From IMG/VR virus record IMGVR_UViG_2511231106_000002, positions 1 to 64,000 of that record: 64,000 nucleotides of DNA; one strand, given 5' to 3'. Origin of the DNA: a virus. Its lineage: Duplodnaviria > Caudoviricetes. A model generated the notes under the pieces. It did not search any database and was not told the origin of the DNA. It saw only the letters and a list, made by a program, of their open reading frames with translations. This document shows positions 1,833 to 19,495 of the stretch, piece after piece; within the stretch, counting starts at the first letter, position 1; each line of letters opens with the position of its first letter. The translations under genes and the position numbers were made by a program.

Positions 1833-2357
1833 TCAAAAATGTACTTTAATCCCGCCCATGACAGTAGACTTACTTCCTGCAACCCAGCCTCCGACGTGTC
1901 CCTTGAGAGGGAACCCGACCATGCCCGCAGGCTGTCCGTGCTTATCTACGCCGACGCCCAGCTCCCACTTGCGGGTCTCATCGACGACAGGCACCTTGAT
2001 GTCAACGCTCGCCTTGGACTGCTGGTCCAGGGTAATCTTGTTTTTGTCCAAAACGTATTTTTCCGTGTCTGACTTTTTAAATGTCTGTTCGTGCCCATTG
2101 ACTTTGACCGTCAAACTCTGCTTGGGGATGGTCACATCAACGTCGGCGTCTTTGGGTGACTCCTTTTCAACGTAGCGAACAACCGTTTTCGTTTCTGTCT
2201 TAGTTTTCGCCTCCATACTTTCGTTCTGGGCGGGTTTTACAACGGGGCATTTATGATTTATCGCACGGAAAGAAAAACCGCTCAGAAAGCCGAAAAGGAA
2301 GCATACGACGGTGTAGGCGAAAAACTTAATTCGTATGCTTGTTTGAAGCCTAATCAT
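1833..2357 (-). CDS. Lysis-cassette membrane protein (N-terminal TM helix, C-terminal Gly-rich beta strands ending in Phe)
   Basis: Overlaps the endolysin stop; hydrophobic segment at about residues 12-30; ends ...TVMGGIKVHF. Confidence 0.6.
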   Translation of the reverse strand: MIRLQTSIRIKFFAYTVVCFLFGFLSGFSFRAINHKCPVVKPAQNESMEAKTKTETKTVVRYVEKESPKDADVDVTIPKQSLTVKVNGHEQTFKKSDTEKYVLDKNKITLDQQSKASVDIKVPVVDETRKWELGVGVDKHGQPAGMVGFPLKGHVGGWVAGSKSTVMGGIKVHF

Positions 2358-2865
2358 GGTACTGCCCGTCCTCGTCGTAGTGCTGTTGATACCATATGGC
2401 CTTGCCTCTGATCGTTTGTAGCTGGCTATACAGGGTATATCCCGGACAAGCTGTGGCCATTAAATCACGGTGTCCAACTACGGTATCAGTATCAATGTCA
2501 ATGCCGTATTTATCTGCCAGCCAAGCAACGAGGGTAGCGCAGGATTCAATTTGTTGTGGTGTTGGCTCTGCCAGTTCAAAATTGCCGCAAACGTGAATCC
2601 CGATAGAACAATTATTATATCCGTAGGCATGAGCACCTATGGTATCCATGGGACGCCCCAGCTCAATGGAACCGTCCTTTCTGATGACAAAATGATAACC
2701 AATTCCAGCCCAGCCTTGCGCCAGATGTGATTCATGAATCTCTTCTGCACTTAAATCATCATCCGTGGGATTCCCGGTATGGTGGATTACAATTAAATCG
2801 GTTCTCCCTCGTTCCATGAGTGGTTCAAACATTAGTCCATAATCAACGAACGTTTGTGTTATCAT
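2350..2865 (-). CDS. Endolysin, N-acetylmuramoyl-L-alanine amidase (Amidase_2 type)
   Basis: IVIHHT, GWAGIGYHF, GAHA, SIGIHVCGNF, GHRD...TACPG; start moved to MITQ at 2865. Confidence 0.92.
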   Translation of the reverse strand: MITQTFVDYGLMFEPLMERGRTDLIVIHHTGNPTDDDLSAEEIHESHLAQGWAGIGYHFVIRKDGSIELGRPMDTIGAHAYGYNNCSIGIHVCGNFELAEPTPQQIESCATLVAWLADKYGIDIDTDTVVGHRDLMATACPGYTLYSQLQTIRGKAIWYQQHYDEDGQYHD

Positions 2866-3166
2866 CTTTTTCCTCCTCTTCCCACTCATCAGGCACTCCG
2901 TTCCCGTCGTCGTCTATTAAACTTTTCCCGATGAATCCGACAGCGGCGATAAAACTTGCTCCTGTGAGTGTCTGTAGCAAGCTGTTCATAGCCCCTAGGT
3001 CAATCTTTCCGGTATGGAATAGCCATAACCAACCGCCAATATACAGACATACGCTCCCGATGATAAGTAGCATAAGAATAATTACCAAGGCTCGTGGCAA
3101 CCCTTTAACCTTCATTCTCCCCATGCCACCCATGATACGTAACAGTGCCTTTTGTAACTCCTTCAC
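2843..3166 (-). CDS. Putative holin
   Basis: 107 aa, two hydrophobic segments, charged acidic C-tail, directly upstream of the amidase. Confidence 0.7.
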   Translation of the reverse strand: MKELQKALLRIMGGMGRMKVKGLPRALVIILMLLIIGSVCLYIGGWLWLFHTGKIDLGAMNSLLQTLTGASFIAAVGFIGKSLIDDDGNGVPDEWEEEEKDDNTNVR

Positions 3167-3459
3167 TTTCTCACTTCCTCGGCCATGTGGAGAACTTCGT
3201 CATGCTTTGCTGTCATGACTCCGTTTTCGGCTAGTTTTTCATAGACGCTGTACATCTCTTCAAATACTTGTTTTTCTTCCGCCGTTGGTGCAATGATCTG
3301 AAAACGGTTGTACATGTCGTTAAGAGATGCCCGCAGAATCAGTTGCATACCCTTTCTGATTGCTTTTAGACCAGTAACATAGGCCACGACGTAGCCGATA
3401 AGCCCGCCCACGGCAAGGCTGATAACTGTGCTTAATCCCTCGATGATGATGTCGTTCAC
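3163..3459 (-). CDS. Small membrane protein of the lysis cassette (holin-like)
   Basis: N-terminal TM helix; stop overlaps the start of the next gene. Confidence 0.6.
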   Translation of the reverse strand: MNDIIIEGLSTVISLAVGGLIGYVVAYVTGLKAIRKGMQLILRASLNDMYNRFQIIAPTAEEKQVFEEMYSVYEKLAENGVMTAKHDEVLHMAEEVRK

Positions 3460-3472
3460 GCTTTGTCCTCCA

Positions 3473-3741
3473 TTAAAGTTTCATGATAAAAGCTAGGGTG
3501 TAGTATGGCGGCATATTATTGTGGGGCTGGCCGCCGCCTGTTGGTTCAATAAATTCGCTCTGGAAATAATAGCCATGATTACCGTCAGCATAATATCCAG
3601 ATACTTTCCTGTCGGTGAAAGTACCGTTTATGCTGTTGTTTGATTGACCAGCATTGTACAAGATAGATTGCGGCTCGGTCTGTGGAAACCCACCCTTGGC
3701 CAATGCTATCCTGTGACCATGAGATGGCATCTCATCGGTGG
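3473..3741 (-). other. Silent alternative C-terminal cassette for tail fibre 2
   Basis: Begins right after the TAG of 3742..4401 with CCACCGA-TGAGAT; encodes TDEMPSHGH...GGGQPHNNMPPYYTLAFIMKL*, paralleling the expressed tip. Confidence 0.85.
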
Positions 3742-4401
3742 CTATGCGGTACGCCTCCACACATAGGCCGCCACGCAGGGAGACAGGTTGTTGTGAGGGA
3801 CATCTTTACCGAAATCCATGACAAACCCGTCACCTTGCCCGCTTTGTGGATTTGACTCGAAGCTGACATTTTCAATGGATGCAGGAGCCGAAAATACGCC
3901 GTGGGTGGTCAGCTTTTGATTTGGATCTTGTCTAGCAAAATCGAGGACATCTCCTCTGATATGGGGCAGTTCATCGGTGGTGAGCTTGTGCATTCGCTCG
4001 CCGTATTTCGTGCCCGCCACGTAGTTAAACGAGCCGAAATCATCTGTGCCGGAACCCTGTGCGATGAGCGTGTAGCCTGCTGGCAGGGCTTCCCACGTAC
4101 CGCCGAACAGGTCAGCGGGGCTGGTGCTTTTGTCGCTGAAGTAGTACGAGCCGACGGGGTGGGCGTCGAGCTTTGCTTTCGTCTGGGCGGCTGAAACTGC
4201 CGTGCTGATGGCTTGCTCGTAGGCCGCTTTTTGTTTAGCCAGGGCATCGGCCAGGAGCTTCTGGACCCACGCCGTGGTAGGCACTTTCTGAGAGTTATCG
4301 TCCTTTTCCGGTGACGAGACGTACATAGCTCCCCAATTTAACCCTTCAATACCAAGGGATCCTTCGCCATCGCCGTTGGGCACGATTGCTCTTGTCGTCA
4401 T
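3742..4401 (-). CDS. Tail fibre / receptor-binding protein 2 (gp53-like tip)
   Basis: HPVGSYY...SPADLFGGTWE...GERMHKLTTDELPH...HNNLSPCVAAYVWRRTA. Confidence 0.85.
   Translation of the reverse strand: MTTRAIVPNGDGEGSLGIEGLNWGAMYVSSPEKDDNSQKVPTTAWVQKLLADALAKQKAAYEQAISTAVSAAQTKAKLDAHPVGSYYFSDKSTSPADLFGGTWEALPAGYTLIAQGSGTDDFGSFNYVAGTKYGERMHKLTTDELPHIRGDVLDFARQDPNQKLTTHGVFSAPASIENVSFESNPQSGQGDGFVMDFGKDVPHNNLSPCVAAYVWRRTA
3968..3986 (-). repeat. Crossover site 2a AGCTCA-CCACCGA-TGAACT (partner 2b at 3729-3741)
   Basis: Inverted 6-bp arms around a 7-bp spacer; the spacer is repeated at 3741-3735. Confidence 0.75.
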
Positions 4402-4529
4402 TTAGACTCACCATCCTTCTTTTCATCGGCTTGCTGTTCCGGCTTATAAGCAATGCAGGCCGGGTTTACGCATTTATCGTCCACCAGCTTGTGAGCGCAA
4501 TATTCGCAACGCTTCGGGATCTTAAACAT
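4398..4529 (-). CDS. Small Cys-rich protein (43 aa), at the position of an XkdX-type gene
   Basis: Read manually: MFKIPKRCEYCAHKLVDDKCVNPACIAYKPEQQADEKKDGESK*; overlaps both neighbouring genes. Confidence 0.7.
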   Translation of the reverse strand: MFKIPKRCEYCAHKLVDDKCVNPACIAYKPEQQADEKKDGESK

Positions 4530-4971
4530 TCTCCATCGCCTCCTTGTATTGGGCTTGCAGGTCTTTAAAATCTGCCCGGATACTTTCCTGAGCGTCCGTG
4601 TCGCCGGTCAGGAGAGCCACGGCCATGCTGTCGGTCAGGTCCTTGACTGCACTGTCATAGTCGGCCTTGAGGCTGGCTTTCTGTGCCTCCTGTCGCTCTT
4701 GCTCCGTGAGCTCCGCCGGTGGCACGTAGGTACGTTTGGCCTGGGCATCCAGCAGGTCCTGGATGCGTTCACAGTAACCGCTGTAGGTGCCGTTGGGATA
4801 AGGTAAAAAATCTCCATCCACCACGCAGCACTCCTGTGTATCGTCATAGATAACGGATTCCGGGACGGATACAGCCCCGGCGTCGAGTAAAAAATTATCG
4901 ACGGTCTCGCTGTATGTGCGGTCGCCGTCGATGATCAAAACATTATTTTTTAAAATCTGAAAAACATGCAT
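4522..4971 (-). CDS. Putative tail fibre assembly/chaperone protein
   Basis: 149 aa, directly downstream of the tail fibre 1 cassettes; AAGGAG RBS. Confidence 0.6.
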   Translation of the reverse strand: MHVFQILKNNVLIIDGDRTYSETVDNFLLDAGAVSVPESVIYDDTQECCVVDGDFLPYPNGTYSGYCERIQDLLDAQAKRTYVPPAELTEQERQEAQKASLKADYDSAVKDLTDSMAVALLTGDTDAQESIRADFKDLQAQYKEAMENV

Positions 4972-4980
4972 TTTTATCTC

Positions 4981-5003
4981 CTTTCACTGAAAGTGAACTG
5001 GCA
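4981..5003 (+). repeat. Crossover site 1C CTTTCA-CTGAAAG-TGAACT-GGCA
   Basis: Inverted relative to sites 1A and 1B. Confidence 0.85.
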
Positions 5004-5267
5004 CCTCACAGCCACCTCGCCACGGCGGCAGTTGCAGGGAATCACAATCACAATATTCAATTAAGTAATTCATTAGGCGACGACTGGGGGCAATACAATA
5101 AATGCGCTCATAAAGGCCGTGACGGGTCCAGAATATGGAAAACTGAACCTATCTCGTACGCTGGCGATCATTCCCACAACATCACCATTTCTACGACGGG
5201 CGGCGGGGCCGCTCATGAGAACAGGATGCCGTATAGCGGCGTTGCCTACTGGGTTCGCACCCAATAA
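4986..5267 (+). other. Inverted silent C-terminal cassette C for tail fibre 1
   Basis: Open frame with no start codon: TESELAPHSHLATAAVAGNHNHNIQL...YAGDHSHNITISTTGGGAAHENRMPYSGVAYWVRTQ*. Confidence 0.9.
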
Positions 5268-5562
5268 CAAACGCCTTGGAACGGGGGCCTGTTTTCGTGG
5301 CTTTCATTGCCACCGATAGATCCTATTGCGATAGAAGGGGACAAGGTTTCAAGGACGTTGCGGACCTCTATTCCGTGGTCCTTGGCCCCTCCGCCCGATT
5401 CTTCACCGCTGACAATTGTTCCCGACCAACCATTTTTCGGAACATCTTTGTATTGGTTGGTTGACGAGTAATTTGTAACGACCCCATGAATTTGTGCAAC
5501 CCTAGATACAGCCAGCGTAGACGACGCAATTTTAGGCGTGATTTTTGCTAGTTCACTTTCAG
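5246..5562 (-). other. Silent C-terminal cassette B for tail fibre 1
   Basis: Open frame with no start codon: ESELAKITPKIASSTLAVSRV...IGGNESHENRPPFQGVCYWVRTQ*. Confidence 0.9.
5546..5562 (-). repeat. Crossover site 1B CTGAAAG-TGAACT-AGCA
   Basis: 17/17 identical to 5849-5865; lies 4 bp after the tail fibre stop codon. Confidence 0.88.
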
Positions 5563-5566
5563 CCCG

Positions 5567-6754
5567 TTAAGCCGTTCTTTCCCAATATGCCACGCCCTGA
5601 TACGGTTGGCGGTTTTCATGTCCTTCACCAGTCCCAGACGTGCCCAAAGAAACGGTGACAGCGTGGGAATGTGCGCCGTCAGTCGTGGTTTTTCCGAGGT
5701 AGTTATCGTGATCTGTTCCGGATGCCCCAGCATACCCACCTTGTGACGAATATTCGCCCAATGGATTGTTTTGTTTTACGTCACCTCTCCCACCGTGGTA
5801 ATGAGCGCCGTTAGTACTGCAAGCCGCAGAAGCTCTGTGGGTGTGAGGTGCTAGTTCACTTTCAGTGAGTTTGTGTTCAGCTTCGCCGCCCGTATCCCCC
5901 ACGGAATAGCTAAACTTTTTCCCGTTCTCCCAATATTCGCCAGCTCCGATAGGCACACGGCCCTGCAACGTGCGTTTCCAAGTCGTGCCTGCCCACAGCT
6001 GGTTTGGGTTTTGGTCGCCAGTGGTAGCGATGACAAATCCAACCGGATAGATGATGTCGATGATGTCCTTGACGGACCGCTGCTTGACCTGCTTCCAGGT
6101 ACCGTCAGCGTTCAGATAGTACTCGTTGTCCTGGCCGGCCATGGGACGGGGAACAAATCCCCGCTGCCCGTTAGCGGTCGACGTGCAACCTTTGAAGTCG
6201 CTGTGGGCGTTGACGTCCGTCAGGTGGGCCTGGAACTCTGCTTCCCCTACCGTCTGGGTATCTGATACATGGACGGATACGGTTTCAGCGTCACCCACGC
6301 TGGTGTAGATACCGACTTCCTGGGGCGTCATGGGGGTATCCTTGCTGGGCAGCCAGTCCGTTTTTCCTTCGTCGGCGTACCCATAGCAGAACAGGACAGC
6401 ATCCCCGGTGTACCCATCCCAGCTGTCCCCGGTGTAGTAGGAAGATTCTACCTTGGCCCACAGGCCCACTTCAGAGATGTGGAACCCGGTGGCCAGCGTG
6501 CTGTTCGAGAATTTCCCGAACGCTGCGTACCGGCCTTCCGTAGTGTCAGTGTTCTTGATTTTCTTCAGGCTAGTGATGTCGCTGGTCAGCTTCTCGTCGA
6601 CCAGGGCCGTCATGGCACTGATGGTGCTGGTGTCCGTCGGTCTGCTGTCGCCGATGGCCATTTTCGTAAACACCAAAGGGCATTTGTTCACCCTGGACAG
6701 GGCAATCAGGTTGAGGCCCTGTTTTGTGGTGACACATTGATGAAATTCAGCCAT
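5567..6754 (-). CDS. Tail fibre protein 1 (baseplate-attachment N-terminus, gp53-like variable tip)
   Basis: TTKQGLNLIA...FTKMAIGD...FHISEVGLWAK; IYPVG...GGEAEHKLTESELAPHTH...HENRQPYQGVAYWERTA. Confidence 0.88.
   Translation of the reverse strand: MAEFHQCVTTKQGLNLIALSRVNKCPLVFTKMAIGDSRPTDTSTISAMTALVDEKLTSDITSLKKIKNTDTTEGRYAAFGKFSNSTLATGFHISEVGLWAKVESSYYTGDSWDGYTGDAVLFCYGYADEGKTDWLPSKDTPMTPQEVGIYTSVGDAETVSVHVSDTQTVGEAEFQAHLTDVNAHSDFKGCTSTANGQRGFVPRPMAGQDNEYYLNADGTWKQVKQRSVKDIIDIIYPVGFVIATTGDQNPNQLWAGTTWKRTLQGRVPIGAGEYWENGKKFSYSVGDTGGEAEHKLTESELAPHTHRASAACSTNGAHYHGGRGDVKQNNPLGEYSSQGGYAGASGTDHDNYLGKTTTDGAHSHAVTVSLGTSGTGEGHENRQPYQGVAYWERTA
5849..5871 (-). repeat. Crossover site 1A AACTCA-CTGAAAG-TGAACT-AGCA inside tail fibre 1
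   Basis: Encodes KLTESELA at the constant/variable boundary. Confidence 0.88.
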
Positions 6755-6758
6755 TGTC

Positions 6759-7538
6759 TTACTCCTTTACTCGTATCGTTCCATCACTGTTAATGACGAA
6801 GACGTCATCCGTAGCACCCACCGGGGCTGCAGTAGCGGGAGACACTGTGCTGGTATTGGCGTTCCATACCGTGTTCGCCTTGAGGCCAAGCTCTGTCAGG
6901 TGGATGGCATCGTCTTTTATCTCGAATACCGGCGTATCCACGGACCACAGAACAGCCGTCTGCAGCACTTCGTCGTTGGCCAGCAGGCCGCATTCCACGC
7001 CCCTGGACGCCATCCGAATTACCGTACCGATGTACTCGGATGCATCCAGATGGGTCTTGAAGTGGTAGGTGCGGCCTAGGTGGGCTGGCAGGTAGGTATT
7101 CACAGCCTCGTCTATTTTCGTGAAATCGTGCGTTCCGCTATCGGGTAGGTAAATATCCACCGTATACTCGGATGGATGTTCCACAATCTGCGTGGCAGCC
7201 ACTGTGGTGAACAGGTTAATCATCCTGGTCAGGAAAGCGGGAGTCACCGTGGGCGGCTTCCCCATTTTGGCCAGTACGGATGCCCGTCTGGTCTCCAGGT
7301 CCACACTGGTATTCACATTGATGCCCAGCATACGCTCCCAGGCCGCCATGCCCCAGGTAGCCGTTTCCGCGTGGAACTGTTTGGTTACGTCAATCTGGGC
7401 CAGCCGCTGACGTTCGTGCTCTTTCTGCAAACTGTCCTGGATGGCTTTGAATTCCGGGCTCAGATATAGGAAAACCGGCAGATACCTTTTCAGGTTTACC
7501 GGGTCCGTTCTCAAGAATTGGAAATCTGGTGCTTTCAC
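6759..7538 (-). CDS. YmfQ/DUF2313-family baseplate protein
   Basis: LKRYLP...QFHAETATWGMAAWERMLGI...PAHL motifs. Confidence 0.85.
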   Translation of the reverse strand: MKAPDFQFLRTDPVNLKRYLPVFLYLSPEFKAIQDSLQKEHERQRLAQIDVTKQFHAETATWGMAAWERMLGINVNTSVDLETRRASVLAKMGKPPTVTPAFLTRMINLFTTVAATQIVEHPSEYTVDIYLPDSGTHDFTKIDEAVNTYLPAHLGRTYHFKTHLDASEYIGTVIRMASRGVECGLLANDEVLQTAVLWSVDTPVFEIKDDAIHLTELGLKANTVWNANTSTVSPATAAPVGATDDVFVINSDGTIRVKE

Positions 7539-7573
7539 AGGAACACCACCTCTTTCACATGAGGAATCTCAAA
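7535..7573 (-). pseudogene. C-terminal remnant of baseplate J gene
   Basis: Reads ...EIPHVKEVVFL* with a GTGA overlap onto the YmfQ start; resembles the baseplate J end of prophage R (QIPVAGKVVL). Confidence 0.55.
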
Positions 7574-7633
7574 GGTGTCTGTATTTGATACAATCGAACG
7601 ATAGCAGGGATTTTGAACACCCCCGTGTTCACT

Positions 7634-8566
7634 TCAATCGTTGTTGTACTGATTGGCTATCTTCTTGAGCAGAAGTGCTTTTTCCATGAACCAGTCAAAG
7701 TAAGTTTTATATTCTTTTCTATCAAACGCCGCATCAAGCTCCTTGGTCAAAAGCATACGTCCATCTTTTTCACCTTCTGACCACTCAATGGAAGCGCCTA
7801 ATTCCTTTTCTATCGTATCTTGATTATCTTTCAGCTGCCTATACCAATCCTTCCCCTTGGCAACATACAAGCCCGCTGTCGCCCGATGGCGGGATGTGTT
7901 GATTGTAAATTCTACCACCACAGATGATACGCCGGTACTCAGGTTGTACCAATTGGTCGCGAAAGCCTTTCTGCATGAGAAGCTCTTGCTGAACTTACTG
8001 TCTTTATCGAAGGCATAGTCACAGAACTGCTGCCAGAAGTTCAATTGGAATTTCCGCAGCGGCGTCAGGGTTTCTGCAGCTTTCACCGTTTTTGCCCATT
8101 CGTTGGGACGTTCTACAACATTAAACCGTGGTGCTGGCAGCGAATCCCCAATGCGCCAGAGTTCAATTTCAATCAGGAAAAAACCAATATTTTCATCCGT
8201 ATGCTGATTCAGCCATCCGATAGCCTGTTTATGCTCATCACGAGCCCTTTTGACAATCCAGACTATAATTTCAGCGTCTTTCCCTGCCGCATACGTAATG
8301 ATTTTTCCCAAATGATCATGGTCGGTATCTTCCAGCTGATTCTCGATGATAATCCCACGGGAACTCCCGCTTTCGCGGGCGTAGATGTCTACACTGAAAC
8401 TTCCTACTGGAGATTCCGTTTCCTCAAGCTCTAGGTCAATTTCAATGGCATCACTCAGCTGTTCCAGATTTTCTTTTTGGGCAAGCCATTTTGAAAAATC
8501 CTGTTCCTCATGCGGCCAGATAGACCGCAAGTCATCAATCCGTTTCATGCACCCTAGTTTTTCCAT
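7634..8566 (-). CDS. DUF4268-domain protein with N-terminal PD-(D/E)xK (NucS-like) domain
   Basis: WPHEEQDFSKWL, VGSFSVDI, IIIENQLEDTDHDHLGKIITYAAG; C-terminal FW...NWY...IEKELG. Confidence 0.8.
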   Translation of the reverse strand: MEKLGCMKRIDDLRSIWPHEEQDFSKWLAQKENLEQLSDAIEIDLELEETESPVGSFSVDIYARESGSSRGIIIENQLEDTDHDHLGKIITYAAGKDAEIIVWIVKRARDEHKQAIGWLNQHTDENIGFFLIEIELWRIGDSLPAPRFNVVERPNEWAKTVKAAETLTPLRKFQLNFWQQFCDYAFDKDSKFSKSFSCRKAFATNWYNLSTGVSSVVVEFTINTSRHRATAGLYVAKGKDWYRQLKDNQDTIEKELGASIEWSEGEKDGRMLLTKELDAAFDRKEYKTYFDWFMEKALLLKKIANQYNND

Positions 8567-8591
8567 ATATGTCACTTCACTTCCCGATGCT

Positions 8592-9806
8592 TTAGAAATG
8601 CTTCTCCTCTGCCGCCTTGAAATTATAGACTGGTTTCATCACGTCGATAACGTCCACGGTGTCACCGATGACATCCAAGATATCGTCAAGGGATTTGTAG
8701 GCCATAGGAGCCTCGTCAATGGTACCTTCGTTTACCGATGTTGTATATACGCCTGCCATCTCCTGCTGGTATTCCTTGAGGGAAAGCTCTTTGATTGCCT
8801 GGGTACGGGACATGATGCGGCCTGCGCCGTGCGGGGCAGAGTAATTCCACTCGGCATTGCCTTTGCCGAGTGCCAGGATGCTTCCGTCACGCATGTTGAT
8901 GGGAATGAGAACCTTTTCACCCTTATGTGCGGCGATGGCTCCTTTTCTGAGAATCATCTCATCGACATCGATGTAGTTGTGAATGGTATGAAACGCTTCG
9001 CCGGGCTGAAGGCCGGCTCTTTCCAGCAGTTTTTTGGCAATCTGCTCCCGGTTCAGTCTAGCAAACTGCTGGCAAAGAGCCACATCATGCAGATACTGCC
9101 TCAGGTATTTTCCGGAGACAAAGCAAAGATCTTCCGGCAGCTTTTCTCTGCGTTGTTCTGACTTCGCCTGCTGGATGGCCTTCTGGATTTCTTTTTGCCG
9201 TCCTGCTGCCTTGTATTCTGCTATGATATGCTGGAGCCGTTCTTCCAGTGTTTCATCATGGGCATTCAGCTCAACGGCCATGCGCTGATAAATCTCCGCC
9301 ACCTGTTTTCCCAGGTTCCGGCTTCCTGTATGGATGACGAGATAATGTCGACCATCATGGGTTTTATCGACCTCGATGAAATGATTCCCGCCTCCCAGGG
9401 TACCGATACTGCAGGCAATCCAAGACAGTTTTTTCAGCTTGTCATAACAATAGAGCCGCTGCAAATTGAAGTCAGCCTGTTTCTCAGGCCAGACATTCAT
9501 CCCGGAAGGTACGATGTGAGCCGCTTCATCGAGTCTGGCAAAATCAATCGGCTGCTTGTCAAGAGCAATCGTATACATGCCACAGCCGATGTCCACGCCG
9601 ACGATGTTCGGTACTGCCTTGTCTGTGATTGTCATCGTCGTACCAATCGTACAGCCTTTCCCGGCATGGACGTCCGGCATAATCCGCACCCGGCTCCCCT
9701 TCGTCAGCTCATAGCTGCACATGCGGCGGATTTGTTCCCTCGCTTTCTCATCGATACTCTTGGCATACGATATTGCCGTTGTAACTGTTCCTTCAATCCG
9801 TTCCAT
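8592..9806 (-). CDS. rtcB: RtcB family RNA 2',3'-cyclic phosphate/5'-OH ligase
   Basis: MPDVHAGKG, VGVDIGCG, GTLGGGNHFIE, HTGSRNLG, HNY, RKGA, SAPHGAGR, DEAPMAYK; start moved to MERIEG. Confidence 0.93.
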   Translation of the reverse strand: MERIEGTVTTAISYAKSIDEKAREQIRRMCSYELTKGSRVRIMPDVHAGKGCTIGTTMTITDKAVPNIVGVDIGCGMYTIALDKQPIDFARLDEAAHIVPSGMNVWPEKQADFNLQRLYCYDKLKKLSWIACSIGTLGGGNHFIEVDKTHDGRHYLVIHTGSRNLGKQVAEIYQRMAVELNAHDETLEERLQHIIAEYKAAGRQKEIQKAIQQAKSEQRREKLPEDLCFVSGKYLRQYLHDVALCQQFARLNREQIAKKLLERAGLQPGEAFHTIHNYIDVDEMILRKGAIAAHKGEKVLIPINMRDGSILALGKGNAEWNYSAPHGAGRIMSRTQAIKELSLKEYQQEMAGVYTTSVNEGTIDEAPMAYKSLDDILDVIGDTVDVIDVMKPVYNFKAAEEKHF

Positions 9807-11216
9807 TGTCGCTTCACCTGCCGTCCCTGAGTTCCATAATTTTCTACTATTATACAACAGTTTACAGCTTTTAAGCCGCTTGCTCATCGCCCCAAGCCAA
9901 TGCTTGCAAAGCCTTGAGCAATGTGCTTGAATTTATGCTACTTTGGGCTTTGGACACCAAAGTGGCGAAAAATACTTCCTTGTGGATCTGCTGGCTTAGC
10001 GCGTGCCGCAGCTCTTGCGGGCTCTTGTCCCGGTAGGTGTTCAGCCGCTCGTCCTCATACGGCAGGATCTTCATGAGAGCGTGCCCGGAATTCGTTAGGT
10101 TCAGCAGATGCTCAATCGCAGTCTTTGTGCGAACTTTGTAGCTGCCGAGCTCCCAGAACATCTTCTGCTCGTAGTAGTTCGTCTCAATGCCCCAGCGGAG
10201 CTTGTAGAGCTTGAGCGGGTAAATCGCCATATGCTTGGAGCTGGTGTTGCGGAGCCCTTTGTTCTCCTGCCAAGCAATGCTCATGTGCAGCGCCATCGGA
10301 TCTATGGTGCTGAAAAAGAGACGGTACGAGCCACTCTTGCTCAGCGTCACATAGGCATGGACGGTATGGTCGCCAAAGATGCGCGTTTTCACCAGACGGT
10401 GAGCAACAAAATAGTTGTCCATCCGGCAAAGGTAATTCGTGAGATCATTGGCAATCTCGTCCAGCATCAAGCGTTTACCGTACTTTGGTGGACGGCCGCG
10501 ACGGCCTGCCGTCGAATCCGGCAACTCGAACATGGCCGTATCGTGGCGTGCATTGCAGGTCACATTGAGATTCGGATAGCTGAGAGCATGTGCGAGCAAC
10601 TCGCGCTTGGCGTACCAGCTATCGAAGAGCAGGATGACCTGGCGTTTTTCAAGGATTGGCATGACTTCATCGAGAAGCTGGCAGGCAAGTGTCAGCTTCG
10701 AGGCTTCGCCGTTGCTCATGACGTAGCCAATCGGCACCGCGATATAACGGATCTGCTGCTTGCCTGCGGTCTCATGGAGGACCGGCACGCTCATCGTCAG
10801 GCTGACGAAGGCATGCCCATTGAAATAGGACTTGCCATCGTGTTTGGCGTGGTCGTACAGGATGCCTACACCGTCGAAGTGCTTGCCCCACTTGGCAATG
10901 GACGTGTCGTCCACGCTGAGCAGGATAGGCTCCTGCCGCAGTGCCTCTGGCACTATGGCAAGCGCCTGCAGCGCCAAGGCCTGGCGAATGGATGCATCCG
11001 TGACGAGGCCGTTGCCAAGGGCGCGGTAATAGCTGTTGAGCGATGCGTCCGTCTGCTTCGATAGGAACTGCCGGAACAGGCAGCGCACCGACGGCGCCGA
11101 CTCCAGAGCCAGTTGAGCAATGAGTAACCACGCCAGCAGATGGCGCGTCCGTCTCGTCGCAGATGGGAACAAGGAAGAAAAAGTCGTCAGGAGTCTGTTA
11201 ACTGTATTCGTATATT

Positions 11217-11888
11217 AAGCCCCCATCTGAGATGGGGGACCCGGTGGAGCCGTAGCTTTGCCTAGAGTATAAAAAATCCTCCAGTGTTAGAATAAAGAGG
11301 GTCTAGCAAACCACTTTAGCTAACAAAGGAGGAGTCCAAATGGACAACAATAGTATAGCTCATACCAAATGGAATTGCACATATCATATCGTATTCATCC
11401 CAAAATATCGCAAGAAAGTATTCTACGGGCAAATGAGGAAAGATTTGGTTGAAATCATCCGAAAATTGTGCGAGATGAAGAAAGTGGAACTGATCAAGGG
11501 AGCTGCATGCGTGGATCATGTGCATCTGTATCTCGGGATACCGCCGAAGTTGAATATATCAGACGTAGTAGCCTATATCAAAGGGAAAAGTGCGTTAATG
11601 ATATACGACCGGCATCCCGAGATAAAAGCCAGATGGGGAGAACGGCATCTCTGGGCACGAGGCTATTATGTAGAAACCGTCGGGAATATCAACGAAGAAG
11701 TTATCAAGCGTTACATTTCAGAGCAAGAAGAAAGCGATAAGTTCGAGAAGTAAGTAAGACGAATAAGCGAAAGAGTCGCCATAGGCGGCTGTAAGTACAA
11801 AGACGATTTGCTAGACCTGCCATAGGCAGGTGTCAGTACAAAACCCCGGAGGGGTTCCAAATAAACCCCCATTTGAAATGGGGGTTGC
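11217..11888 (+). mobile_element. IS200/IS605-family element (tnpA only)
   Basis: Subterminal hairpins CCCCCATC-TGA-GATGGGGG (11220-11238) and AACCCCCATT-TGA-AATGGGGGTT (11864-11886); no target duplication. Confidence 0.88.
11340..11753 (+). CDS. tnpA: IS200-family Y1 (HUH) transposase
   Basis: YHIVFIPKYR, DHVH (HUH), KGKS, LWARGYY, YI..Q. Confidence 0.95.
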   Translation: MDNNSIAHTKWNCTYHIVFIPKYRKKVFYGQMRKDLVEIIRKLCEMKKVELIKGAACVDHVHLYLGIPPKLNISDVVAYIKGKSALMIYDRHPEIKARWGERHLWARGYYVETVGNINEEVIKRYISEQEESDKFEK

Positions 11889-12440: not shown

Positions 12441-14021
12441 CTCAAACTTCGCACACCTGAAACCCTTATGAGACAAGGATTCATCGGGTTTTCAGACATC
12501 CGTCGTCATCACATCATGCACACTGTTTCAGGCACTTTCCCCATAAATCGGGCAGTTTTGCCATGAACAGATCGAGCAGCTGGTTAACCTGCTCTTCGTC
12601 AAGAATCTCTGCTTCTTTCGCGCAGTCCATCAGCAGGCTCAGGAGTGAGGCCAGAGCGTCCAGATAATGCAGGTCTTCTAACTCGTCCATCGTCAGATAA
12701 AAAAGCTCGCCAAGGCTCCGTTCATCCATGTTGCGCCGCTGCTCTAAAGCGAGCATCATGTACCGCGCAAAGACAATGGCCGTGTGAGCGGTCAGGGCGT
12801 CGTAGGAGATGGATCTCGTCTCTTTGCCCAGCTTCAGGTAGGACTTGCACATCTTGAAGAAGACCTCGATGTTCCAGCGCTTGCCATAAGTCTGGATGAT
12901 CTCTTCTTCTGACAGTGTCAGGTCCGTCGAGACCAGGACGAGGTAGTCGCTGCGCTTGTTCTTGTTGCGGACATAGACCAGCCGTACGGGAAGGCGCTCG
13001 CCATCCTTGACGGCCTCGGCCTCTACGGAGAGCAGGTAAGCGGAGCGCCCGCGGCGCTTCTTCTGGCTCCGGTAGATGGCCATGACGTCCTGCATGCGGC
13101 CTTGGAAACAGAAGTGCATCTTCTCGCTTTTCTTGACACGCGCGATGACGTCGTAGCCGAGTTCATGGATCTGGTGCAGCGATGCCGGTGAGCAGAACCA
13201 TGAGTCGAACAGGACGTGCTGGGCAGGGGCACCTGTCTCACGCGCTTCCTGCAGTAACGTTAGGACTACTTCTGGAGCCTTGCACTGTGCCAGCTTGCGC
13301 TGCTTGCCGCCGTTGCTGCGCGGGTCAACGTCTTCCGACGCGCCCTGCAGTTGCTGCTGCTTCGATGACGAGGACAACAGGCAGTGGCTGAGCGGCAGGA
13401 AGGTATTCCCGTCGCTCCAGCCGAGCGTGAGCATGCGAAAGCCCTTCATGTACGTGCCGCTGACATGGTCGTAGACGCGGGCCAGCAGCTCTACTTTCTT
13501 GGAGCGGTTGCGGCTGAACAGCGAGTCGTCGATGATGAGGACATTCCTGCGCGCCCCGCTCGTCAGCGGTGCGATGGCCTTCTGAATGATGGCTGTGCCC
13601 AGGAGCAGCGTGAACTTGCGCCAATGGATGGCGCAGGAGTTCAGGAAGCGGTAGAACGTATCCCGCTCAAACGGGATGGACTCTGGCGCATCCTTCTTCC
13701 GTTGGTAGAAGGAACGCCGCTGGAACGCCGCCTCAAACGCGACGAGGAAGATGGCCATGACTGCAAAGCCGCGCAACTTGTAGGCATTGCAGCTCCGCAG
13801 GATCTGGCTAACATGGAACTCAGTAAAGAATTGCTGAATCTTGGAAGAAGCGGCTTCACAGGAGTGATGATGATGTGGTACAATATTCATAGCATAAGCC
13901 CTCCGTTTGTGTTATGGATTTTGGTTACTTCATTATACAAAATGGAGATGGCTTATGTTATTTTTATTTTGCAGATTGCTGCTAAGAATAAATCAGCAGC
14001 TTAGCAACTGCGAAGTTTGAG
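12441..14021 (-). mobile_element. IS4-family element, intact
   Basis: 13-bp TIR CTCAAACTTCGCA; 7-bp target duplication TCATGGA at 12434-12440 and 14022-14028. Confidence 0.92.
12514..13890 (-). CDS. IS4-family DDE transposase
   Basis: IIDDS, LFDSWF, YGKRWNIEVFFKMCK (YREK motif). Confidence 0.92.
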   Translation of the reverse strand: MNIVPHHHHSCEAASSKIQQFFTEFHVSQILRSCNAYKLRGFAVMAIFLVAFEAAFQRRSFYQRKKDAPESIPFERDTFYRFLNSCAIHWRKFTLLLGTAIIQKAIAPLTSGARRNVLIIDDSLFSRNRSKKVELLARVYDHVSGTYMKGFRMLTLGWSDGNTFLPLSHCLLSSSSKQQQLQGASEDVDPRSNGGKQRKLAQCKAPEVVLTLLQEARETGAPAQHVLFDSWFCSPASLHQIHELGYDVIARVKKSEKMHFCFQGRMQDVMAIYRSQKKRRGRSAYLLSVEAEAVKDGERLPVRLVYVRNKNKRSDYLVLVSTDLTLSEEEIIQTYGKRWNIEVFFKMCKSYLKLGKETRSISYDALTAHTAIVFARYMMLALEQRRNMDERSLGELFYLTMDELEDLHYLDALASLLSLLMDCAKEAEILDEEQVNQLLDLFMAKLPDLWGKCLKQCA

Positions 14022-14023
14022 TC

Positions 14024-14878
14024 ATGGAACTATCCGGAGAAATTCCGGTGAAGCTTCTTTGCAAGACAATGGGCATCCAGAGGAGCAGTTTCTACGCTTG
14101 GAAAAAACATCTTTCTCAGCCGTCGGGCAAAGAAAAGCGCCTTTTGAGCAACGTCCTGCTGTTCCAGGAGTACCATTGGAAGTATCCATCGCACGGCTAT
14201 CGCTGGCTGAACGCCAAGATACGGTTGGACAAAGAGATTGTCCTGTCCGATCCCTATGCCCACAAATGCTGTAGGATTGCGGGAATCAAGAGCAAATCCA
14301 AGCACTACAGGTACAAGAAGGCTGGCGATCCAGCGCGGATATTTCCCAACCTGCTCATGTCTGAAATGCAGATCGATGGGCCAATGCAGTGCATCGTGAG
14401 TGATATGACCGCTTTTTATGTGAAAGGCATCTACCATGAACTGACTCTTTATATGGATCTATGGAACAATGAGATTGTCAGTCATTCCCTCTCTGCAAAA
14501 CGCGGTGATCGCATGACTTACATCAGCGGACTGGAAAATCTGATTGAGTGGCAAAAACGGCATCCGGAGCACCAAATGGTTCTCCATTCTGACCAGGGAT
14601 CGGTCTACGCCTCCAAAGCCTACAACGAGCTATTGCCCATGTACGGCATCACCCGATCCATGTCACGTGCCGGGACCCCCACAGACAATGCCGCTATGGA
14701 GTCCATCAATGGATGGATCAAGGCGGAGCTGTTCATGGACTTGCATGTGACCGGCGAGAAACCGGTCAAGGAGGAGGTGGATGACTACATTCTTTTCTTC
14801 AATGAACAGAGGCCAGCCTATTCCTTAGGCTACCTGACGCCGAAGCAGTATCGGGAACGTCACACGCCCATCTGCTGA
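14024..14878 (+). CDS. IS3 OrfB (DDE integrase core), separated from OrfA by the IS4 insertion
   Basis: VSDMT, HSDQGSVY, SMSRAGTPTDNAAMES, FNEQRP. Confidence 0.9.
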   Translation: MELSGEIPVKLLCKTMGIQRSSFYAWKKHLSQPSGKEKRLLSNVLLFQEYHWKYPSHGYRWLNAKIRLDKEIVLSDPYAHKCCRIAGIKSKSKHYRYKKAGDPARIFPNLLMSEMQIDGPMQCIVSDMTAFYVKGIYHELTLYMDLWNNEIVSHSLSAKRGDRMTYISGLENLIEWQKRHPEHQMVLHSDQGSVYASKAYNELLPMYGITRSMSRAGTPTDNAAMESINGWIKAELFMDLHVTGEKPVKEEVDDYILFFNEQRPAYSLGYLTPKQYRERHTPIC

Positions 14879-15055
14879 TCTCGTCTGCATTATCGATGGC
14901 ATGGTTTGTCTAACAAGCTTGAAGGATGTCAGAAAAGTTGATGAATCTTGTACATCGATTCGTTTTTTATGCCTGATTTTTTTAGTTTTGTGTCCAATTT
15001 TTGTTGACAAGTGCAAGTGACTGCATCTTTGATTGTATGAAGTGATGTATTAGTA

Positions 15056-15157
15056 ATGGCAATAAGAGTGCTAATTGCTGATGATCACGCTCTATTGAGC
15101 CAATACGACCCGTTGAATTTGGCGGGTCGTTCAACAGATAGTAGGAGGTTATTATGA
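15056..15157 (+). pseudogene. Chimeric 33-aa ORF starting with the N-terminus of a NarL/DegU-type response regulator
   Basis: MAIRVLIADDHALL, then unrelated sequence; its TGA overlaps the bla ATG (ATGA). Confidence 0.7.
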
Positions 15158-16008
15158 AGAAATTTTGTTTTTTGTTTTTGATAATCTGTGGCTTGATGGT
15201 TTTCTGCCTTCAGGATTGTCAAGCGCGGCAGAAATTAAATCTTGCTGATCTGGAAAATAAATATAACGCCGTGATTGGTGTTTACGCCGTTGACATGGAG
15301 AATGGAAAAAAAATTTGCTACAAACCTGATACGCGTTTTTCCTACTGCTCGACACACAAAGTTTTTACGGCTGCAGAATTGCTAAGACAAAAAAATACCT
15401 CCGATTTGAATGAAATTCGTAAGTTTTCGGCGGAAGATATTTTGTCCTACGCGCCAATCACCAAAGACCATGTTGCTGATGGCATGACGCTGGCGGAAAT
15501 TTGTTCGGCATCGCTCAGGTGGAGTGACAACACGGCGGCAAATTTAATTTTGCAGGAGATCGGCGGCGTGGAAAATTTCAAGGTGGCACTTAAAAATATT
15601 GGCGACAAAACTACCAAACCTGCGCGAAATGAACCTGAACTTAATCTTTTCAATCCAAAAGATAATCGTGATACTAGCACGCCGAGACAGATGGTAAAAA
15701 ATTTGCAAGTCTATATATTCGGCGATATTTTGAGCGACGACAAGAAAAAACTGCTGATTGATTGGATGAGCGACAATTCCATAACCGACACGCTTATCAA
15801 GGCAGAAACTCCGCAAGGTTGGAAAGTTATCGACAAGAGCGGTTCAGGCGATTATGGGGCGCGGAATGATATTGCCGTGATTTATCCGCCCAATCGCAAA
15901 CCCATTGTCATGGCGATAATGTCGCGCCGCACGGAAAAAAATGCAAAATCTGACGACGCTATGATTGCGGAGGCGGCAAAACGAATTTTTGATAATTTAG
16001 TATTTTAA
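15154..16008 (+). CDS. blaACI-1: Class A beta-lactamase ACI-1
   Basis: Signal peptide, STHK (SxxK), SDN, EPELN and KSG motifs; the 284-aa sequence is recognised as ACI-1; AGGAGG RBS. Confidence 0.95.
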   Translation: MKKFCFLFLIICGLMVFCLQDCQARQKLNLADLENKYNAVIGVYAVDMENGKKICYKPDTRFSYCSTHKVFTAAELLRQKNTSDLNEIRKFSAEDILSYAPITKDHVADGMTLAEICSASLRWSDNTAANLILQEIGGVENFKVALKNIGDKTTKPARNEPELNLFNPKDNRDTSTPRQMVKNLQVYIFGDILSDDKKKLLIDWMSDNSITDTLIKAETPQGWKVIDKSGSGDYGARNDIAVIYPPNRKPIVMAIMSRRTEKNAKSDDAMIAEAAKRIFDNLVF

Positions 16009-16088
16009 AGGGGCTTGATAGCATCGGTATTGCCGATGGGCAGAGAGGGCCATCACGCAAAAATATTTCGCCAAACATTTATATCTCA

Positions 16089-16116
16089 CTCAAACTTCGC
16101 ACACCTGAAACCCTTA
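16089..16116. repeat. Orphan 28-bp copy of the IS4-family element end
   Basis: CTCAAACTTCGCACACCTGAAACCCTTA, identical to 12441-12468. Confidence 0.9.
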
Positions 16117-16118
16117 CT

Positions 16119-16148
16119 ATTATATCATATTCCGATTTTCTTCATCAA
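16119..16148 (-). promoter_or_regulatory. Putative promoter TTGATG-N18-TATAAT with extended TG
   Basis: Minus strand TTGATGAAGAAAATCGGAATATGATATAAT; points leftward. Confidence 0.5.
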
Positions 16149-16204
16149 AAATACGGCAGAGAATCCTGCGTTTCCTCTTGGATTCTCTGCCGTAATCCTT
16201 TTTT
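16146..16204. terminator. Bidirectional terminator after the recombinases
   Basis: 15-bp stem TACGGCAGAGAATCC/GGATTCTCTGCCGTA flanked by A and T tracts. Confidence 0.85.
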
Positions 16205-16209
16205 CCTGC

Positions 16210-17778
16210 TTATGCTCTGATTTCCGTCCCGTCCTTGAAGGTCACCCGGATATCGTCTTTGCTGTACACTGTGATGAAATCCACCAGGCTGCCCCACAGC
16301 CGGGCATCGAACTCCTTAATGAGATCCTGATTCCTAAGCTCCTTGATGAAGCTGTCCATCTGACGGCTCCGGGCCTTGCGATACTGGATGGCTTCACAGG
16401 TCTTGTCGTACTGCGTCTTCGCTGCTTCATACCGACTGACCAGTTCGTTGTAGTTCCGGTCATAATCATCCTGGTTCTGCGCGACCCTGGCGTTCTCGGC
16501 TATGAGCTGCTGTATCTTGTCGGCCAGCAGGTTCAAATCTGTGCTTATCCTGTCCCGCTCCTCTTCCAAGTCTTCTGTGTCAGTGAGCCGTTCCTTCAGC
16601 AGTGTGATGCTGTCAAGTACGTCCGCTTTGTTTTCGATGAGCTGATTGACGGCCCGGACGAAGGCTTCCTTGATATCATCCTCTGTCAGATGTGGTGTCT
16701 TGCAATGGCTCTTGAACTTATCGTTGCATCGGTAGATGGTTCTGCGGTACTTGTCGGTCGAATGCCAGACCTTGGCCCCGTACCAGCCTCCGCACTGGCC
16801 GCACTTGATTTTGCTGGAGAAGATGGATACGCCGCTGTAACGTCCCCTGCCTTCACGCCGCCGCTTGATTTCTTCCTGTACCCAGTCGAAGACCTGCGGG
16901 CTGATGATGGCTTCGTGGTTATTTTCCACATAGTACTGCGGCACTTCCCCTTCATTCGCTTTCGTTTCTTTGGTCAGGAAGTTGACGGTGAACCGCTTCT
17001 GCAGCAGGGCATCGCCCTTGTATTTCTCATTTGTCAGGATGCTCTCTACCGTCCCCGGATACCAGCGTTTCTTTCTTGCCGGAGTTTCCAGCCCTCTGGA
17101 AGTCAGCTCCCTGGCAATGGAGTGGAAGGTATACCCGTCCAGGAACAAGCGGTAAATCAGTTTCACCGTCTTGGCCTGTTCCCGGTTGACGACCAGATTC
17201 CCGTCCGGTCCCCGGTCATAGCCAAGGAAATGGCCGAACGGCACACACACCTTCCCGTCAGCGAATCGCTTCCGATGGCCCCAGGTGACGTTTTCCGAGA
17301 TGCTCCTGCTTTCTTCCTGCGCCAGGGAACTCATGATGGTGATGAGGAGTTCGCCCTTGGCATCGAGCGTCCAGATATTTTCCTTCTCGAAATATATCTC
17401 GATGCCCTTGTCCTTGAGCTTGCGTACCGTTGTCAGGCTGTCTACGGTATTTCTGGCGAAGCGGCTGACTGATTTTGTGACGATGAGGTCGATTTTCCCA
17501 TCCATGGCATCCCTGACCATCCGCTTGAAGCCATCGCGGTGACGCGTGTTGGTAGCCGAGATGCCTTCATCGGTGTAGATGCCGACAAATTCCCAGTCAT
17601 CCCGTTCCCTGATATAGTTCGTATAATAATCGACCTGTGCTTCATAGCTGCTGATCTGGTCATCATGGTCCGTGGAAACCCTGGCATAGCCCGCTACTCT
17701 CCGCTTCTTCCGGCTGTTAATCGGAGCCGCCGTATAACGGCTGATGGTGGCCGGGATGGCCCTTACTGTCTTTGCCAC
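16210..17778 (-). CDS. Large serine recombinase 2
   Basis: YARVSTD, DEGISA, TKSVSRFARN, AQEESRSISEN, Zn ribbon CGQCG, coiled coil. Confidence 0.95.
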   Translation of the reverse strand: MAKTVRAIPATISRYTAAPINSRKKRRVAGYARVSTDHDDQISSYEAQVDYYTNYIRERDDWEFVGIYTDEGISATNTRHRDGFKRMVRDAMDGKIDLIVTKSVSRFARNTVDSLTTVRKLKDKGIEIYFEKENIWTLDAKGELLITIMSSLAQEESRSISENVTWGHRKRFADGKVCVPFGHFLGYDRGPDGNLVVNREQAKTVKLIYRLFLDGYTFHSIARELTSRGLETPARKKRWYPGTVESILTNEKYKGDALLQKRFTVNFLTKETKANEGEVPQYYVENNHEAIISPQVFDWVQEEIKRRREGRGRYSGVSIFSSKIKCGQCGGWYGAKVWHSTDKYRRTIYRCNDKFKSHCKTPHLTEDDIKEAFVRAVNQLIENKADVLDSITLLKERLTDTEDLEEERDRISTDLNLLADKIQQLIAENARVAQNQDDYDRNYNELVSRYEAAKTQYDKTCEAIQYRKARSRQMDSFIKELRNQDLIKEFDARLWGSLVDFITVYSKDDIRVTFKDGTEIRA

Positions 17779-19442: not shown

Positions 19443-19459
19443 AGAATCAGCTCCTTTCG

Positions 19460-19495
19460 ACACTATATATCACTCTGTTTGATACAATTATCAAG
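19460..19495 (-). promoter_or_regulatory. Motif II copy 1: TTG(C/A)TA-N12-AGAGTGATATAT
   Basis: Same motif and spacing at 47397-47432 and 48362-48392. Confidence 0.7.

Follow-up and report, generated by a model that had tools for sequence, protein, structure and literature searches.

The Gin system of phage Mu, the Cin system of P1 and the Min system of p15B, the last of these being a multiple-cassette inversion system, all employ small serine invertases that act at sites of about 26 bp and involve a Fis-dependent enhancer, and in all three the invertible segment also holds tip-specific assembly genes (U/U'). The shufflon of the R64/IncI1 plasmids employs a tyrosine recombinase (Rci) that acts at 19-bp sfx sites, and what it varies are the pilV tips of a conjugative-pilus adhesin; we know of no report that the convergent cassettes of this shufflon have any coding DNA in common. 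Antiparallel gene overlaps as such are common in phages and bacteria in the form of short 4-nt overlaps of stop codons (CTAG, CTAA or TTAG). The closest described system to the locus considered here is the Rin shufflon of Bifidobacterium prophages, for which Mavrich et al. describe a constant part of the RBP together with variable cassettes and short repeats (2018, PMC6109161).

The present locus lies within a stretch of 64,000 nucleotides from a virus of the Caudoviricetes (positions 1 to 64,000 of IMG/VR record IMGVR_UViG_2511231106_000002), which in its entirety is referred to below as the window. At positions 5246-5267 the window contains the 22 bp CTACTGGGTTCGCACCCAATAA, from which YWVRTQ followed by a stop codon can be read on both strands. 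The interpretation preferred here, to which a probability of roughly 0.8 might be attached, is that these 22 bp are the junction of two convergent tips, B and C, which together form one invertible segment of a tail-fibre shufflon in an Acidaminococcus-type prophage. The two-strand reading was originally noticed in a first-pass annotation made from the sequence, and it holds on closer inspection: the plus-strand frame (translated from 4974 to 5267) ends ...ENRMPYSGVAYWVRTQ-stop, with its stop codon at 5265-5267, and the minus-strand frame (translated from 5575 to 5246) ends ...ENRPPFQGVCYWVRTQ-stop, with its stop codon at 5248-5246. The same annotation described B and C as convergent, overlapping and possessed of a common C-terminus, which is exactly what the two translations give over the length of the overlap. 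The features of the locus are collected in Table 1.

Table 1 Features of the tail-fibre locus. Positions are counted from the first letter of the window.
Feature	Position	Strand	Remarks
Amidase	2350-2889		downstream of fibre 1
Second Gp10_C fibre (fibre 2)	3742-4401		downstream of fibre 1
149-aa gene	4522-4971	-	directly downstream of the cassettes; occupies this flanking position in every relative
Crossover site before C	4987-5003	+	opposite in orientation to the other two sites, with 16 of 17 positions in agreement
Silent tip cassette C	5004-5267	+	87 codons plus stop; start codon absent; in frame with site 4987-5003
Antiparallel dual-coding overlap, 22 bp	5246-5267	both	last six codons plus stop of C (+) and of B (-)
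Silent tip cassette B	5246-5545	-	99 codons plus stop; start codon absent; in frame with site 5546-5562
Crossover site before B	5546-5562	-	direct repeat of 5849-5865; 4 bp past the stop of tip A
Tip A (C-terminal part of the expressed fibre)	5567-5848	-	ends YWERTA-stop; no overlap
Crossover site within the expressed gene, where constant part and tip meet	5849-5865	-	17-bp repeat, families D5/I1/I3
Tail-fibre gene 1, constant N-terminal part	5866-6754	-	whole ORF 5567-6754, 395 aa
Mu gp48-like baseplate gene	6759-7538		precedes fibre gene 1

The 17-bp repeat that marks the crossover sites is present in three copies and nowhere else in the 64-kb window, and each copy precedes an in-frame tip of 87-99 codons, of which A is expressed and B and C are silent. 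All three tips have the motif HENRxP[Y/F]..V.[Y]W.RT. in common. The arrangement is therefore that of a shufflon in two respects, namely in having a constant 5' part with promoterless in-frame 3' cassettes behind repeats (A, B and C), and in having its cassettes bounded by crossover repeats of both orientations. The module is packed very tightly; behind the expressed fibre gene come B and C, which have no promoter and converge on the 22 bp, and the 149-aa gene (for which the sole match is PHROG 32639, a family of unknown function) starts 15 nt from the outermost site, with its ribosome-binding region abutting that site. As regards the fibre itself, the ORF at 5567-6754 matches Pfam Gp10_C with an E-value of 4e-15 and Phage_tail_fib at its N-terminus, as well as tail fibre and tail protein families of PHROG. 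Against the profile PF21939 Gp10_C (the C-terminal domain of the T4 baseplate protein gp10), for which the cut-off is 27 bits, fibre 1 scores 57.4 bits over residues 231-394 and fibre 2 scores 52.7 bits; cassettes B and C in isolation give no match to this profile. A PDB sequence search with the fibre found no relative, and an AlphaFold2 model of the fibre carrying tip B, built on an alignment of 14 sequences, was unusable (mean pLDDT 38, pTM 0.20).

When the 22-mer is compared with its own reverse complement, 16 of the 22 positions are identical, and each of the six mismatches (positions 1, 4, 10, 13, 19 and 22) is a wobble position in both frames, since an overlap of 3n+1 bases brings the third codon positions of the two strands face to face. 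By exhaustive enumeration, the property of encoding the same hexapeptide and a stop on both strands belongs to 1,913,278 of the 4^22 possible 22-mers (a fraction of 1.09e-7), which corresponds to an expectation of about 0.007 such overlaps per 64 kb; the window has one, at 5246, and a sample of 2e7 Markov-random 22-mers yielded none. Enumerated as peptides rather than as DNA, 8,745 of the 64 million hexapeptides (0.014%) can be written on both strands.

The reason why this particular peptide should appear lies in the way codons pair across the two strands in this register, where TAY (Tyr) stands opposite TAR (stop), TGG (Trp) opposite CAR (Gln), ACN (Thr) opposite GTN (Val) and CGN (Arg) opposite CGN (Arg). 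It had been suggested in the annotation that the terminal Gln would be forced by the double coding, and rightly so: TGG is CCA on the other strand, which leads to CAR and hence Gln, and enumeration confirms that for a sequence Y-W-x-R-y-z Gln is obligatory as z. There remain 23 possible (x, y) pairs, among which y = Thr occurs solely with x = Val, making YWVRTQ the one peptide that can be coded on both strands with Y, W, R and T retained; Val is thus forced by the Thr of the opposite strand, by the same logic as Gln is by Trp. The leading Tyr is likewise required, because Phe, as found in FWRRTA tips, provides no stop on the opposite strand. Outside the overlap the consensus of the family is [Y/F/C]-W-[E/R/K]-R-[T/N/Q]-[A/T]-stop, and Val or Gln is found at the two forced positions in none of 18 non-overlapped tips. 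Since the non-overlapped tips have neither residue there, and neither strand gives up the conserved Y, W, R and T, Val and Gln can be regarded as the price of sharing the DNA. The alternative dual-coding ends YWERSQ-stop and YWRRRQ-stop each gave one match in IMG/VR, both of them chance matches with no fibre context.

One obvious check, already proposed in the annotation, is to look for the same antiparallel overlap in homologous pairs of cassettes. A whole-fibre search was made with peptide patterns taken from the constant part and tip A, so that the 22-mer played no part in it; of the ten IMG/VR loci found, five (L011, L012, L013, L014 and L016) have both B-type and C-type tips, and in all five the 22-nt overlap is present. 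A scan with a degenerate pattern for the palindrome gave 7 viral, 6 genome and 29 metagenome stretches. Judged by context, these contain true tip pairs on 20 distinct contigs, including one of Acidaminococcus intestini DSM 21505, so that the scan adds 15 true contexts beyond the five protein-derived loci, all with HENRxP...YWVRTQ-stop on both strands; a further 22 stretches, having neither the tip motif nor long open frames on both strands, were rejected as chance matches. It must be borne in mind that most of the 20 contigs were found with a pattern that itself fixes the invariant bases, so that on the question of invariance only the five protein-derived loci are independent, and those five are interrelated. 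A B/C-type pair without the overlap was found in no relative, and a search with tip B against a representative set of 1.84 billion proteins gave only two close clusters, neither having a non-overlapped end; a second scan of IMG/VR, with tip B as query, gave no further loci.

In every overlap one partner is B, the other being C, C' or D (which are 40-48% identical to one another), and the junction is always the same. Other convergent tips of the family meet by 4-nt stop overlaps (CTAG, CTAA or TTAG) or a 3-nt gap, or are separated by gaps of about 210 nt; the recurrence of the 4-nt overlaps and the 3-nt gap implies that close abutment is common among them, and an overlap of 22 nt is peculiar to the B lineage. 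As a separate observation, tip A of L011 (4895-5173) is 100% identical in amino-acid sequence to that of the window, the constant parts of the two being 46% identical, and tips B and C of relatives are 79-97% identical to those of the window as against 46-63% for the constant parts; the far better conservation of the tips suggests an exchange of tip cassettes between different phages. In L010 (3291-6246) four tip cassettes lie between a convergent pair of tail-fibre constant regions, one 87% and the other 41% identical to that of the window, an arrangement in which one pool of cassettes may serve both fibre genes.

If the locus is a shufflon, recombination between the site within the gene and an inverted site would put another tip behind the constant part, and the cassette orders found among relatives can be compared with those that this would generate. 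Written with the constant part on the left, the window has A> B> <C, L037 has A> C> <B, five loci (L013, L016, L039, L047 and L054) have B> <C <A, and L056 and L038 have C> <B <A; with D as partner, L011 has A> D> <B and L030 and L035 have B> <D <A, and several loci with two cassettes show C'> <B, B> <C' or B> <C. All four cassette orders attainable by inversion are thus observed, and the orders observed are exactly the states attainable by inversion between the junction site and any inverted site. With no crossover site between them, B and C always move as one unit, joined throughout at their 3' ends. B is the expressed tip in L013, L014, L016, L030, L032, L039, L044, L047, L048, L054 and L057, and also, with an apparent frameshift, in L035 (a contig of 1.3x coverage). 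C is the expressed tip in L056 and probably also in L038, where the locus is cut before the constant part; homologues of C in relatives have 86-97% amino-acid identity.

Evidence for inversion at the repeats also comes from comparing near-identical contigs with one another, which differ only by clean inversions there. L030 and L011 have flanks that are 99.7-99.8% identical and between them a 927-bp segment that is 100% identical and inverted, with 19 bp in common at each breakpoint. Between L045 on the one hand and L048 and L057 on the other it is the 561-bp B/C' segment that is inverted, within flanks about 95-99.9% identical. The breakpoints of these inversions in relatives coincide with the homologous crossover sites. 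Among assembled contigs of public sequencing runs, none of the runs covering at least 90% of the stretch, one from run X4 joins 4986 to 5562 on opposite strands and one from run X2 joins 5545 to 5849, in both cases exactly at the sites; as these runs are without the rest of the locus, the joints may belong to related phages instead of to isomers of the present one.

With regard to the enzyme of inversion, a Resolvase search of the record from which the window comes gives only recombinases of more than 500 aa and no small serine invertase (of about 190 aa), and the same search of five related records gave nothing in four of them; membership of the Gin/Cin/Hin/Min group of serine invertases was accordingly rejected, there being no small serine recombinase in the record or in those four. 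What the record does contain is a pair of large serine recombinases (at 16.2-19.5 kb) and, distally, a single tyrosine integrase. In relatives, a tyrosine recombinase of 322 aa adjoins the fibre-2 cassette array, oriented against the late genes, and a homologue of it lies 2-3 kb from the cassettes in most of them; the contig of A. intestini DSM 21505, in which B is paired with C', encodes an identical copy (100%). Family searches with the 322-aa protein gave only general integrase families (Pfam Phage_integrase and PHROG 1), Xer-like NCBIfam matches being sub-threshold. We infer that this recombinase is the invertase. The dedicated recombinase beside the array that is present in relatives is absent from the window, and no homologue of the 322-aa protein was found anywhere in the window's record; because the gene is missing, the copy in the window is probably frozen as A> B> <C unless it receives the enzyme in trans.

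The comparison with L017, which is 98-99% identical to window 3534-5002, is instructive as to what the window no longer shares with it. In L017 the stretch 3141-5320 holds the 322-aa tyrosine recombinase and a fibre 2 with four tips, of which two converge in a 4-nt stop overlap (4531-4534). The window has neither the recombinase nor the two convergent fibre-2 cassettes that lie next to it in L017, and its remaining silent fibre-2 cassette (3473-3760) diverges at about 3534 into a different ending (...FIMKL-stop). In L016 (7350-7985), L047 and L056 (8418-9399) the recombinase homologue matches in two pieces, and may there have suffered an internal deletion or frameshift; some shufflons may therefore, like that of the window, have lost their enzyme.

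Some features of the neighbouring DNA may be mentioned here. The two large serine recombinases, at 16210-17778 and 17763-19463, adjoin the gene for a class A beta-lactamase of 284 aa (15154-16008; Beta-lactamase2, E 4e-40), which lies among DDE and rve transposases, with an IS200 Y1 transposase (11340-11753) some 3.4 kb from it. A preprint (10.1101/235788) describes the aci1 (ACI-1) transposon region within a cryptic Acidaminococcus intestini prophage, and the gene set of window 12514-19463 agrees with the text description given there. The genes immediately upstream of the gp48-like gene (window 7539-11753) encode a DUF4268 protein, an RtcB ligase and two transposases, one a DDE transposase (DDE_5/DDE_Tnp_1 type, possibly IS4-like) and the other the IS200 transposase; none of them is a baseplate gene, and at the equivalent position L017 has an ORF of 346 aa (8557-9597); to judge from this gene content, the prophage may be interrupted upstream of the gp48-like gene.

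Returning to the cassettes, the annotation had argued from the double reading that both strands are under coding selection, and this proves to be so. Among relatives the median NG86 dN/dS is 0.093 for B (139 pairs) and 0.126 for C (38 pairs), at synonymous divergences (dS) of up to 1-2 among the cassettes compared, and some relatives express the one cassette as their tip, some the other; selection is purifying on B and C alike, and the two frames that form the overlap are both open. The reading frame is open in all 18 aligned copies of B and in 9 of 10 copies of C, the sole broken copy being the silent C of L014 (5176-5436, minus strand), in which a Glu codon has become a stop 39 codons before the end. 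Stops or frameshifts in homologues had been named beforehand as what would tell against the annotation's view, and those that exist amount to this stop in L014, which lies outside the overlap, and the apparent frameshift in B of L035, other copies being open.

Within the overlap itself, interpretation needs rather more care. Over six haplotypes, variation is confined to positions 1, 4, 10, 13, 19 and 22, but this wobble-only pattern could come from selection on one strand alone, since the third positions of the two frames coincide in this register; the comparison of substitution patterns that the annotation had recommended is thus only partly diagnostic. Two sites are nonetheless informative. 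The first is the third base of the Thr codon, which is four-fold degenerate on its own strand and is fixed as C by the TGG opposite, and the second is the codon family used for Arg. Across 18 distinct overlapped tips Thr is ACC in 18 and Arg is CGN in 18, the fair sample for such fixed bases being the six protein-derived or own loci (12 tip ends), all of which agree. In the 18 distinct non-overlapped tips of the same loci, by contrast, Thr is ACG in 7, ACT in 3, ACA in 1 and ACC in 1, and Arg is AGR (AGA or AGG) in 5; tip A of the window, with AGA for Arg and ACG for Thr, has two codons that are both incompatible with dual coding. Coding selection inside the overlap, as had been proposed, is therefore upheld by the contrast with non-overlapped tips.

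These results bear directly on the possibility that the silent cassettes are dead and that the palindrome is a chance coincidence or decaying relic, reflecting no more than the common ancestry of two pseudogene ends. The absence of a recombinase from the window and the stop codon in one relative's silent C would both fit such a view, but chance predicts only 0.007 cases per 64 kb, the overlap has been retained at dS values of 1-2 with dN/dS near 0.1 on both cassettes, both tips are expressed in other genomes, and clean inversions are seen between near-identical phages; the cassette orders, the selection values and the inversions largely refute it, and we regard it as very improbable indeed. 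What had been claimed in the annotation, that both silent cassettes are functional, holds for the lineage; it does not extend to the window, which is without the recombinase of its relatives, nor to the silent C of L014 with its premature stop.

A different possibility is that selection acts on the palindrome for the hairpin it forms in RNA or DNA, for example as a bidirectional terminator or as a stabiliser of the mRNA 3' end in either orientation, and that the peptide is secondary. The sequence does fold better than shuffled sequence (-22.5 kcal/mol, z = -4.3, on the minus strand and -16, z = -2.2, on the plus strand), and for L011 the figures are more pronounced still (-25.5, z = -6.4). Against this, there is no U tract after the stem on either strand, and the strict 3-nt periodicity of the conserved positions is wholly accounted for by coding. 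The wobble pairs, 1/22, 4/19 and 10/13, offer a more specific test, in that coding would permit complementary choices (for example TAC with CAG), yet over the six haplotypes these pairs are Watson-Crick complementary in just 4 of 18 cases, and in L016 the outer stem is lost without compensation. As an intrinsic terminator the palindrome has a hairpin with no T run on either strand, and a scan for terminators and promoters finds nothing there; a weak terminator-like site at 5273-5288 (plus strand) is within background. The RNA hairpin looks like a by-product, and its being the primary object of selection seems distinctly unlikely.

Much the same evidence can be brought to bear on the idea that some dimeric protein, perhaps a regulator or an accessory factor for recombination, binds the palindrome in the middle of the invertible segment. 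A near-perfect 22-bp palindrome is indeed central in the minimal invertible segment of 561 bp, but it varies only at third positions of codons, with the central positions 10 and 13 taking all four bases, convergent pairs of the FWRRTA type invert without any such palindrome, and beyond this lineage the motif occurs as chance matches only. Such a function is accordingly very hard to credit.

As to how the overlap came about, B and C both come from a family with the C-terminus [Y/F/C]-W-x-R-T-A-stop, the codons for which are nearly self-complementary in this register, so that the last six codons and the stops can be shared provided that x becomes Val and the last residue Gln, as both have done here. 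The overlap might then have arisen either through loss of a spacer or through fusion at the short coding palindrome of V-R-T, and it would persist because any change other than at a wobble position would harm both tips together. A more elaborate account treats the overlap as a scar of its origin, in which a cassette was duplicated in inverted orientation by hairpin-primed fold-back synthesis at V-R-T (GTN CGN ACN); this we consider unlikely, if not fancifully so, and it is with similar reserve that one would suppose the resulting tail-to-tail pair, fused at the centre of the palindrome, to have had its arms later diverge or be replaced. The centre of symmetry is the Arg codon of the intrinsically palindromic V-R-T, and the same junction is retained with three different partners of B, as this account would have it. 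B is, however, only some 38-43% identical to its partners, no closer than other pairs of tips, which leaves no trace of a duplication, and other convergent pairs of the family meet by 4-nt stop overlaps or gaps without such a fusion. An origin of this kind does not conflict with dual coding at the present day.

Going one step further, the Y-W-x-R-T motif could be conceived of as a pre-adapted coding palindrome that seeds new tail-to-tail pairs by fold-back replication at V-R-T. This is a speculative extension and rather an unlikely one, but if it were true, fold-back would give at one stroke two complete and correctly terminated tips with common ends, and the 22-bp overlap would be the footprint of the birth of shufflon cassettes, going beyond mere compaction.

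Whatever its origin, the B/C junction offers a natural case of two alternative ends of one protein written on opposite strands, in which the genetic code dictates the changes of x to Val and of Ala to Gln, and it shows how tightly the host-range switches of phages can be packed. It also has a practical use, in that ends in ...RTQ with ACC and CGN codons serve as a marker for silent but functional tip cassettes that gene callers overlook. The overlap is a well-supported curiosity and does not reveal a new mechanism.

It remains to set the locus beside the systems with which this account began. With Gin, Cin and Min it has in common that inversion swaps the C-terminus of a fibre, and with it host range, and that a site lies within the fibre gene; it differs in that one unchanged downstream gene serves all states and in that the convergent ends overlap. 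The R64/IncI1 shufflon is similar in having multiple-inversion segments with convergent alternative C-terminal cassettes of an adhesin. Like antiparallel overlapping genes elsewhere, B and C are both translated and both of their frames are under purifying selection; unlike the usual cases, the products are alternatives of one protein, and the overlap, 7 codons long, encodes the same peptide on both strands.

In the case of Rin the likeness extends to a phage-borne location, to promoterless C-terminal cassettes each behind a short repeat, and to arrangements that vary among related prophages, as the published account describes them (PMC6109161). That account places an Xer-like tyrosine recombinase without an arm-binding domain beside the array, where here a tyrosine recombinase is found in relatives only; it gives the repeats as 11 bp, as against 17 bp here, and the hosts as Actinobacteria, as against Negativicutes; and in its description the Rv genes are small and separate, with no mention of ends that overlap and are shared (PMC6109161). 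The phage type also appears to differ from that of the Rin phages, the presence of a Mu gp48-like baseplate gene beside a Gp10_C fibre pointing to a myovirus. Literature searches found no description of such a same-peptide overlap. The shufflon is thus of an already known type, and the conserved same-peptide antiparallel overlap is, within the literature searched, an undescribed variant of it, by which tail-fibre shufflons with tyrosine recombinases are extended from the phages of Bifidobacterium to those of gut Negativicutes.
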